A DNA stretch of 18,874 nucleotides from a virus: the UHGV virus genome UHGV-0311022. The stretch is one strand, 5' to 3'. Of the stretch, positions 4,401 through 5,825 are shown one piece after another. Position numbers and translations under genes: made by a program. Under the pieces are notes generated by a model. It was given only the letters and a program-made list of their open reading frames with translations. It searched no databases and was not told where the DNA came from. Every line of letters begins with the position of its first letter. Position 1 is the stretch's first letter.

Positions 4401-5504
4401 TTCCGTACCGTAAACAGATGCCACCTTGTTGATTTCCAGGCGCGACCGGACAGCCTTCATGTGTACCGCTGACACCACCGGATCACCATTTTTATCCACG
4501 GCATCAAGCAGCATCACAACCGCGTTTCTTTCTGTCGCGGAACGGTAAATTGCATCCGGATCGTGCATCAGTTCCGGTAGTCTCTCGATAACATCCATCG
4601 GCACCACATGTTTCACACCATTGGTGGCCTTACGCACAGTGTCGCGGGAGATAACCAGCGGCAAATCTGGTGCGCCAAGGTGACGCAATACCGGCGGCGT
4701 ACGCCCGATGTTTACCGTTAAATCCGTTGAGCGCAGAGACTTCATCATTCTGGCAAGGTCATCACGATAACGCTCGCCCTCACCTTCCGGCACTTTGAAC
4801 GGATCAGGCTTACCGCTACGGGAGTACTGAGACGATGCGTCCGCGCCATCCTCACGCGGCGTGTAACCTTCCCGCACACGCTGGCCTAACGTGCGAATAG
4901 TTTCGCGAACAAGTCTGATATCGTTCAGTTCCGTCGGCTTCAGTAACCCCGTACGACGCAGTACCCCTTTGACCAGGGCAACAACACGCTCCCATGCCGC
5001 CACGAATTTAATCGGCTGCTTCTCTGCCATATGCGCCAGAAATTCACCCGCCTGCACTTCCGGTGATTCCTTACCATAAGACGCATCAACCTTACGCCAG
5101 GCTTCACGGATGGTGGCGTTATCACTGTCACGGGTTTTCAGCACGGTCTTAATAATCGTCTGATATTCCGCTGGCGTGACTACATGCTCCATTGCATGGT
5201 GAATAATCTCGTGACGTAACTTCTCGCGAACGGTCCGCCCGTCAGGGATGTTATCCGCCACCAGGACAATTTCACGTTTATCCGGACGATAGAACGCGTG
5301 CACCTTGCCGTAACCGTCGAATGATTCACCCGCCAGTGCTTCAGCCTCTTTCTGTGACTTCACCACGCGGACCTTCAGGTCACTGTCCTTAATGCCACTA
5401 ATCACGCCACGGGCAACAGCTTCAACCTGCGGGACCGGACTGCCTTTGGCTTCCGCACTGCGGTTAACATCCGAAATCAGATTGCCTTCAGGTGTGCGGG
5501 TCAC
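1482..5504 (-). CDS. Giant multidomain protein (1340 codons), probably the C-terminal part of a split gene of about 2780 codons; contains a zincin-like HEIIH motif
   Basis: Uninterrupted 4 kb ORF. First codon is GTG at 5504-5502 with no properly spaced SD (AAGGG only 1 nt upstream) and no in-frame ATG for about 100 codons. The frame stays open upstream through repeat A (encoding …FETDKGVAFYSRKG-) to a stop at 5574-5576. HEIIH at 5199-5213. Function unknown (polyvalent, virion-associated or effector-like). Confidence 0.85.
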   Translation of the reverse strand: MTRTPEGNLISDVNRSAEAKGSPVPQVEAVARGVISGIKDSDLKVRVVKSQKEAEALAGESFDGYGKVHAFYRPDKREIVLVADNIPDGRTVREKLRHEIIHHAMEHVVTPAEYQTIIKTVLKTRDSDNATIREAWRKVDASYGKESPEVQAGEFLAHMAEKQPIKFVAAWERVVALVKGVLRRTGLLKPTELNDIRLVRETIRTLGQRVREGYTPREDGADASSQYSRSGKPDPFKVPEGEGERYRDDLARMMKSLRSTDLTVNIGRTPPVLRHLGAPDLPLVISRDTVRKATNGVKHVVPMDVIERLPELMHDPDAIYRSATERNAVVMLLDAVDKNGDPVVSAVHMKAVRSRLEINKVASVYGTENGKKLKSMEMTGLTLYRREKLSRDNLLHRGLQLPKGEHSYRGSVDKILYPEDIRKGPYYSRTSSLTPEETIASRFVRQMQDKFQVLKAVQENIRKTGGKIDDSNNAYMAEELFHGKAENDLNVMKERYVQPLAKLLADYKIAQADLDEYLYARHAPERNVHIAKINPKMPDGGSGMTNAEAAEIMQRVRNSGKQAQYDRLAGIIDDMLARRREIIREAGLEESGVVDAWQKAYRYYVPLKGQDVDGVVSQPRTGKGFTIGGRESKQAMGRASRAQSPSTQAIQDLSESLIRNRKNEVGNAFLKLVQDNPDKDYWQVFTDDRPDTMRVIAERKDQETGETIREVVERPVPMAMMADRYFTTKKDGKTYYIKLHDPRLMRAMKNMGPETSNAVIRTLGKVNRFLATVNTSYNPEFLVSNFIRDVQTAVMNLKAEQGRSDGKLKELDNLSALAVVKDSRSAMSAVYASLRGKTLTGKGAQWQKVWKEFVEDGGKTGWFNMGDLEGQQKEMDRLVSLAKGGWKGQSIGAWHSFLNLVEDANGAVENALRLSAYKHARDAGLSRQQAASLAKNMTVNFNRRGEQGMLMNSLYMFANASIQGTANLVRTLGHLNGDGPLLERLRWKNLNVPQKIVLAAVGAGYLLGSLNRSVAGEDDDGVNWYDKVPSHVKERNLVIMKSMFGGKAGEYWSILLPYGYNVFFLLGHTAEGVAAGDLTASRAAGNVVGGILGAFSPIGSETSETLSGALLKNAAPTILRPFANLAMNENFMGAQIYQENMPFGTPKPDSQLGRRSTPEAYKAFAFWLNAFSGGSQYRPGAVDITPESLKFWIDYISGGTGRFISKTTDAAVKSLNGIDIPEQQVPFLGKISGEVMPYADQQKMYDRMTEVAQYHAELKSLTGAERTAFIDENNGKLLMNGLMQDTRKRLKDLRKQRDAIYADSSLSLAQQAAMVKSVERDMKVAVDRFNREYNKKVGVD

Positions 5505-5825
5505 GCCCTTACGGGAATAAAACGCAACTCCCTTGTCCGTCTCAAAAGCGCGTATGGCTGGCGTGGAGAATGATTATCTGGTCAATATCCGTAAGGCGGA
5601 TGACCATGGACAGCCGGACACCTACGCTTATCCGACGAATGCAGAACTGGATGGCGGTATTCGTGAGGCATTCGATCACTTGTTCCGAACACTGAAAACC
5701 CGTGAGACGGACAAGGGAGTTGCGTTTTATTCCCGTAAGGGCGTGTAGGTGTCCGGCTGTCCATGGTCATCCGCCTTACGGATATTGACCAGATAATCAT
5801 TCTCCACGCCAGCCATACGCGCTTT
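5502..5825. repeat. Two interleaved perfect inverted-repeat pairs at the junction of the giant ORFs: A 5502-5544 / A' 5703-5745 (43 bp) and B 5545-5625 / B' 5745-5825 (81 bp), with unique segment S 5626-5702
   Basis: rc(5502-5544) equals 5703-5745 exactly and rc(5545-5625) equals 5745-5825 exactly (checked base by base). The order on the plus strand is A-B-S-A'-B', i.e. not a simple palindrome. The plus strand 5545-5745 (B-S-A') carries an inverted, contiguous copy of the reading frame. Confidence 0.9.

Follow-up and report, generated by a model that had tools for sequence, protein, structure and literature searches.

Results

An inverted 201-bp segment splits a giant ejection-protein gene

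The stretch of DNA analysed here (UHGV virus genome UHGV-0311022, 18,874 nucleotides; hereafter the window, at its full length) holds a giant gene for a virion-packaged polyvalent/ejection protein that is broken into two open reading frames (ORFs) at positions 5502-5825, where a 201-bp piece of its own coding sequence lies inverted between copies of its two ends in the original orientation. We tentatively trace this lesion to a double strand switch during replication in vivo. A preliminary description of the window, made from the letters alone, had read the region as two perfect inverted repeats, A/A' of 43 bp and B/B' of 81 bp, in the order A-B-S-A'-B', and a repeat search of positions 5200-6100 confirmed it: exactly two inverted pairs were found, one of 43 nt and one of 81 nt, both at 100% identity, interleaved in that order and overlapping by 1 nt at 5745 (Table 1). 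The coding strand is the minus strand, A and A' are the copies of a sequence alpha, B and B' those of a sequence beta, and the spacer S is sigma. On that strand, X-beta(81)-sigma(77)-alpha(43)-Y has become X-beta / rc(beta-sigma-alpha) / alpha-Y, where rc is the reverse complement. Compared with the closest relative, Escherichia coli 23CRST047, window positions 5545-5745 match at 100% in reverse, and the flanks are collinear and gapless. The segment is thus inverted, both of its own ends are duplicated in inverted orientation and the remainder is collinear with the ancestral allele, which is the arrangement called dupINVdup. Four inverted pairs of at least 25 nt occur in the whole window, whereas none occurs in the homologous 50 kb of the closest relative, and chance is thereby excluded. 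The junctions themselves are almost blunt, with 1 nt of microhomology at beta/rc(alpha) (position 5745) and 0 nt at rc(beta)/alpha (5544/5545). Overlaps this short are compatible with a double template switch but lend it no support. Near the four switch points, the wild-type sequence holds no inverted repeat longer than 7 nt and only chance 7-mers, and no pre-existing quasi-palindrome or microhomology that could have served as a template for the switches was found.

Table 1. Positions in the window of the two gene fragments, the repeat arms between them and the second interleaved structure.
Feature	Position	Strand	Remarks
Distal fragment of giant polyvalent/ejection-protein gene	1482-5504	-	1340 codons, GTG start; MuF_C and LPD38
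Arm A	5502-5544		forward alpha copy on coding strand; last codon GTG 5504-5502
Arm B	5545-5625		inverted beta copy; part of inverted 201-bp segment
Spacer S (sigma)	5626-5702		77 nt; single copy, inverted orientation only
Arm A'	5703-5745		inverted alpha copy; holds stop codon of 1409-aa ORF
Arm B'	5745-5825		forward beta copy on coding strand; end of proximal ORF
Proximal fragment of giant polyvalent/ejection-protein gene	5727-9956	-	1409 aa, ATG start; LPD5 and truncated LPD1
Second interleaved structure	18367-18864		inverted 256-nt copy (18479-18734) of ykgJ-remnant/terminator module inside another module copy

The reading frames agree with this geometry. The 1409-aa ORF leaves B' and ends as ...QPDTY-TPLRE*, and the 1340-codon ORF starts with the GTG of arm A, there being no other start at that place. 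An AAGGG motif lies only 1 nt upstream of this GTG, and the next in-frame ATG, at codon 105, is not preceded by a Shine-Dalgarno sequence; as far as can be judged from the sequence, the distal ORF has no credible translation start. The plus strand of 5545-5745 encodes a peptide that bridges the two minus-strand frames, and when 5502-5825 was exchanged in silico for the reverse complement of 5545-5745, a single ORF of 2783 codons with zero internal stops resulted. ORF reading and translation therefore bore out what had been proposed at the outset, namely a proximal ORF that stops after TPLRE in A', a distal ORF without an ATG or a usable Shine-Dalgarno sequence, a continuous bridging peptide on the opposite strand and, without the duplication, one ORF of about 2783 codons.

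Recombination between the arms was also reproduced in silico, and it gave the two products that had been predicted. A flip between B and B' yields a 1444-aa ORF with a 40-aa alternative tail, and a flip between A and A' yields a 64-aa, ATG-initiated extension. Either flip turns the other repeat pair into direct repeats, and deletion between these regenerates the exact wild type. Judged by these simulated products, the lesion would be formally revertible in two steps, a flip and a deletion, and would be metastable in principle. A scan of 5000-6300 returned no promoter-like or terminator-like sites. The predicted fold of the transcript has an energy of -224.6 kcal/mol (z = -19), and an 81-bp perfect duplex is expected in it.

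The break passes through a conserved domain of a phi24B gp47-like protein

Pfam models identify the gene. The proximal ORF carries LPD5 (residues 1047-1190, 148.6 bits) and only part of LPD1 (58.6 bits, model positions 1-49 of 78), and the distal ORF carries MuF_C (residues 297-386, 65.5 bits) and LPD38 (residues 1023-1228, 157.7 bits). Across the repaired junction, LPD1 is matched over model positions 1-77 with 86.4 bits; its second half (AYPTNAELDGGIREAFDHLFRTLKTR) is encoded on the wrong strand, in spacer S. Because LPD1 is truncated in the ORF and whole in the repaired junction, the rearrangement cuts through a conserved domain and not between domains. LPD5, LPD1, MuF_C and LPD38 are domains of the phage "polyvalent proteins" (Iyer et al., 2017; PMC5512222) and also of phi24B gp47, a protein of 2811 aa that was found in virions and has been suggested to act as an ejection protein packaged in the capsid (bioRxiv 10.64898/2026.04.10.717836). 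The window covers the distal half of a late operon, that of a phi24B/933W-like podovirus prophage. In the closest relative, the genes of the window follow those for terminase, portal, N4-gp56-type capsid, adaptor and tail fibre, in that order, and the giant gene comes last. The gene is therefore that of the virion-packaged polyvalent/ejection protein of phi24B/933W-like Stx-type podoviruses, with the order LPD5-LPD1-MuF_C-LPD38 of phi24B gp47. As in other large polyvalent proteins, several LPD-type domains occur in more than 2000 aa (the four named, across both fragments). The one continuous ORF of such proteins is absent from the window (1409 + 1340 aa) and appears only after in-silico repair, so that the copy in the window is a disrupted member of the family.

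Relatives carry the gene uninterrupted

Positions 5000-6400 (1401 nt) were compared by megablast with 5426 complete E. coli genomes, with phage records and with plasmids. Matches were obtained in 425 of the genomes, in 186 phage records (mostly Stx-converting phages) and in 4 plasmids. Among the matches listed the span is 1278 bp (1280 bp in one plasmid), about 123 bp below the length of the query, and no record covers more than 86% of the query collinearly; the flanks are 100.0% identical in 13 genomes. The nearest relative, 23CRST047, gives a gapless alignment of 18352 nt with the repaired window, in which 9 positions are mismatched (99.95% identity), and its giant gene is a single coding sequence of 8352 nt (WP_032179512.1, 2783 aa) that differs from the repaired gene by 1 nt. 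Relatives are likewise annotated with a single 2783-aa LPD5/LPD38 protein. At the protein level, one relative (P0001) is identical to the repaired protein across 2336 aa. Among the 120 best protein relatives, the exact wild-type peptide at junction 1 was found in 103 and the peptide at junction 2 in 119, and the mutant tail in none. The rearranged DNA at junction 1 had no match in IMG/VR, the GTDB representative genomes or the JGI metagenomes, and that at junction 2 had none in IMG/VR; these scans cover the flipped isomers as well, since recombination within the arms makes no new junctions. No record was found of the exact products of 1409 aa, 1340 aa or 1236 aa (the last from the ATG at codon 105). 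On the collections searched, the interleaved structure is private to this sequence.

Most of the database homologues of the giant protein (P0002-P0120) are labelled 'partial' and come from contigs 5-35 kb long. Breaks in or near the giant gene are routine in short-read assemblies of E. coli, probably on account of multiple related prophages, and the window, at 18.9 kb, might be an entire draft contig too. One further homologue, P0113, is a 1332-aa ENA cluster of 345 members that covers only the N-terminal part (LPD5, no LPD1) at 91% identity; its members may represent a recurrent truncation or partial sequences at contig ends.

Taken together, these comparisons support, in every detail that could be checked, the early proposal of one giant gene split by an inverted 201-bp segment that is flanked by its own ends. 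The anticipated continuous ORF of about 2780 codons is present in related prophages as the 8352-nt coding sequence, with a span of 1278 bp in the relatives listed, and the reconstructed fusion is collinear with a single homologue, as P0001 and the 23CRST047 gene indicate. The event had further been called recent or actively homogenised. Since only 1 nt separates the repaired gene from that of the relative, the structure is extremely recent, and this part of the claim stands; active homogenisation is not supported, the structure being private and the relatives being free of the repeats.

In the window allele, translation would end at residue 1404+5, in the middle of LPD1. With a stop inside LPD1, a distal ORF that lacks a usable start and an 81-bp duplex in the transcript, the allele is expected to be null or severely crippled for the full-length protein, the one that phi24B packs in its capsid. 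Should the lesion be real, this copy of the prophage makes no full-length ejection protein for packaging in the capsid and is then probably unable to yield infectious particles, a consequence limited to the mobility of the prophage of one strain.

A second interleaved structure lies at the end of the window

The window holds another, possibly related structure of the same rare topology, which ends 10 nt before the last position. Its host module copy consists of a (18367-18475) and b' (18735-18864), and its arms pair 18367-18494 with 18590-18717 (128 nt, 92%) and 18480-18609 with 18735-18864 (130 nt, 94%). Alignments with E. coli genomes break exactly at 18475/18479 and at 18734/18735. The pieces derive from distinct paralogous alleles, which is why identity between the arms reaches only 92-94%. 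The inverted copy carries the prophage's own b' allele and, in addition, 17 nt of flanking sequence that is characteristic of another ykgJ locus (E. coli 55989, JE86-ST02), and the terminal b' is an allele that related strains have elsewhere on the chromosome. Neither junction occurs in phage records, in IMG/VR or in any of the 5426 complete E. coli genomes, and a natural element was rejected on these grounds; the structure resembles a tangle of repeats, a chimera or the product of an ectopic template switch.

The equivalent of the window end in L004 (NZ_AP045820.1) is 11107-11566, and relatives hold a ykgJ pseudogene and a DUF4376 tail-fibre remnant there. In the relatives, this module is part of a phi24B-like structural operon, in which the lateral tail-fibre gene flanks it on one side and the nozzle/needle genes on the other. 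It is absent from the standard Stx phage genome records and is a lineage-specific insertion common to the tail-fibre regions of other lambdoid prophages.

Elsewhere in the late operon, a moron-like insert at 13217-14327 carries genes for a Hok/Gef toxin (13217-13357, minus strand) and an Ail/Lom outer-membrane protein (13590-14327, minus strand). It is adjoined by a low-GC stretch at 14001-15000 (GC 0.378, against about 0.53 elsewhere).

Discussion

Origin of the rearrangement

We place a private, very recent and non-programmed double switch during replication in vivo at a little short of an even chance. The polymerase would copy forward as far as the end of beta, switch to the end of alpha on the complementary strand, whether nascent or displaced, copy back to the start of beta, and then return to the start of alpha and carry on. 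We infer that this would have taken place in the bacterium, during replication of the prophage region. Two strand switches of this kind are the most economical route to the observed order of beta, sigma and alpha. The k-mers at both junctions are absent from the wild type, so that a k-mer-graph assembler cannot form them by re-threading wild-type reads, and a molecule with both junctions must, it would seem, have been read. Several observations nevertheless weigh against this origin. In-vivo template switches usually use a few bases, and the two junctions here have just 1 and 0 nt of microhomology. The structure has been seen in no other assembly, and a second private structure of the same rare topology occurs in the same window, at 18367-18864. 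A sequence that otherwise differs from its relative by 9 nt is unlikely to have undergone two such events independently in vivo, which points to a common cause that is possibly technical.

Such a cause, for which we see a substantial but clearly less than even chance, would be strand switching during whole-genome amplification (WGA), as in the chimeras of phi29 polymerase and multiple displacement amplification (MDA), or else a consensus or scaffolding error with long reads; the structure would then never have existed in a bacterial or phage genome. It would account for two private structures of the same topology in 18.9 kb, where 50 kb of the nearest relative contain none, and for the mixed alleles of the second structure, 10 nt from the window end, which are typical of repeat tangles or chimeras. 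The perfect arms, the flanks that are 100% identical to 13 genomes, the essentially blunt junctions and their absence from the collections searched (IMG/VR, GTDB and JGI for junction 1, IMG/VR for junction 2) also fit it, and inverted intramolecular chimeras are the documented main product of MDA with phi29 polymerase (PMC1855051). Most MDA chimeras, however, have one inverted junction and a deletion, and complementarity of 2-21 nt is seen in more than 70% of such chimeras (PMC1855051), whereas here two coordinated junctions were formed with 0-1 nt of homology and no loss of sequence. Chimeric molecules are, moreover, normally a minority that is outvoted in the consensus. The 77-nt spacer (5626-5702) equals a k in common use by de Bruijn assemblers, which may be a coincidence, as no mechanism could be derived from it. 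Such assemblers are unable to invent the junction k-mers, and pure assembler origins, worked through by hand, were rejected: re-threaded wild-type k-mers give no such junctions. Concatenation of a reversed graph edge, with or without k-trimming, would leave either two arms that are both k long or a lost k-mer, neither of which agrees with the 81 and 43 nt found. If the structure is an artefact, its value is practical, as a recognisable mark of chimeric sequence: perfect inverted repeats in interleaved order that cut a conserved domain in two, and that hundreds of near-identical relatives lack, should be filtered out before any biological interpretation.

The remaining explanations are less probable. 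In a staggered-break inversion, the segment would be released by paired single-strand nicks, one pair offset by 81 nt and the other by 43 nt, and would be re-joined in reverse with its overhangs filled in. This model was put forward for inversions in Drosophila whose breakpoints carry inverted duplications (e.g. PMC7584159, PMC5080602). It predicts exactly the product seen here, near-blunt junctions included, and by sequence alone it cannot be separated from a template switch. It requires, on the other hand, four nicks within about 200 bp and the end joining of two double-strand ends. To our knowledge, E. coli lacks Ku/LigD non-homologous end joining, and alternative end joining is rare in it and usually deletes sequence. 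Because end joining is rare in E. coli, we prefer the replicative route and regard staggered breaks as improbable. We give a similarly small chance to the proposal that both interleaved structures arose in one in-vivo burst of long-range double strand switching, with the lesion in the ejection-protein gene as a metastable, self-reverting knockout; the setting might be, for example, an abortive induction or a host defective in the exonucleases that suppress template switching. If this were true, an Stx-type prophage would be transiently immobilised by a self-reverting knockout of its ejection protein. Least probable by far is that the giant protein is regulated or diversified through a programmed invertible switch or through a natural two-gene architecture. 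Inverted repeats do bracket DNA that could be flipped, and the flip products have altered termini. The relatives (425 genomes, 186 phages and 4 plasmids) are nevertheless without the repeats and without two genes, neither flip restores a functional full-length ORF short of a flip and a deletion, and the break bisects LPD1. In the 99.95%-identical relative, the stretch that corresponds to the window has no gene annotated as a recombinase, whether an invertase or a tyrosine recombinase. We therefore reject a programmed switch, given the lack of repeats in the relatives, the lack of an annotated recombinase and the failure of either flip to give a functional alternative. A natural two-gene organisation is likewise ruled out, as the relatives have a single 8352-nt coding sequence, all but one of the 120 best protein relatives continue across junction 2 and the distal ORF is without a ribosome-binding site. 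Among the origins first offered for the structure, a double template switch or staggered break and an assembly artefact are thus kept, and the programmed switch is dropped.

Comparison with known systems

The gene family and the class of rearrangement or chimera have both been described before, and nothing indicates a new system. The repaired gene shares with that of phi24B gp47 the domains LPD5, LPD1, MuF_C and LPD38, the position in the late operon and the size class (2783 aa). The gene in the window differs from gp47 and from polyvalent proteins in being interrupted, and there is no sign that such an interruption belongs to the biology of the family.

Among systems with inverted repeats, the Gin, Cin, Pin and Hin switches of tail fibres and flagellins and the fim-type invertons resemble the structure in that inverted repeats flank a segment in or near a phage structural gene. 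They differ in that here no invertase is annotated in the relative, the repeats are absent from the relatives found, the pairs are two and interleaved instead of one, and neither orientation is a functional alternative. MDA chimeras (Lasken and Stockwell 2007, PMC1855051) are likewise inverted, intramolecular and local, and arise when displaced 3' ends prime on a nearby strand. They usually have a single junction, a deletion and 2-21 nt of complementarity, whereas the structure described here has two junctions, with a net gain of sequence by duplication and 0-1 nt of homology. MDA chimeras are said to occur at a frequency of the order of one per 10-20 kb.

Template-switch mutagenesis provides a further parallel for the replicative double switch that we favour. 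Switches associated with quasipalindromes in E. coli have reportedly been studied by Ripley and by the Lovett laboratory, and a four-point model of short template switches is attributed to Loytynoja and Goldman. In these, as in our proposal, the nascent strand locally copies the complement and returns, which creates or perfects inverted repeats; in the four-point model, the order of switch points here would be 3-1-4-2. The classical events, however, are templated by existing imperfect palindromes and involve a few to tens of bases, whereas here no wild-type inverted repeat of at least 8 nt lies near the switch points and 201 nt were copied.

Finally, human dupINVdup complex structural variants, attributed to replicative template switching (fork stalling and template switching/microhomology-mediated break-induced replication, FoSTeS/MMBIR), and the staggered-break inversions of Drosophila are of kilobase to megabase scale, whereas the rearrangement here is of 201 bp, lies in a bacterial prophage, has junctions of 1 and 0 nt and is an allele known from sequence alone. 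If the lesion is real, it is a clean, base-resolved bacterial inversion with inverted duplications that formed without pre-existing repeats. It has in common with the human and Drosophila rearrangements an inverted segment whose ends are duplicated in inverted orientation, an ancestral allele that is free of repeats and a non-recurrent origin.

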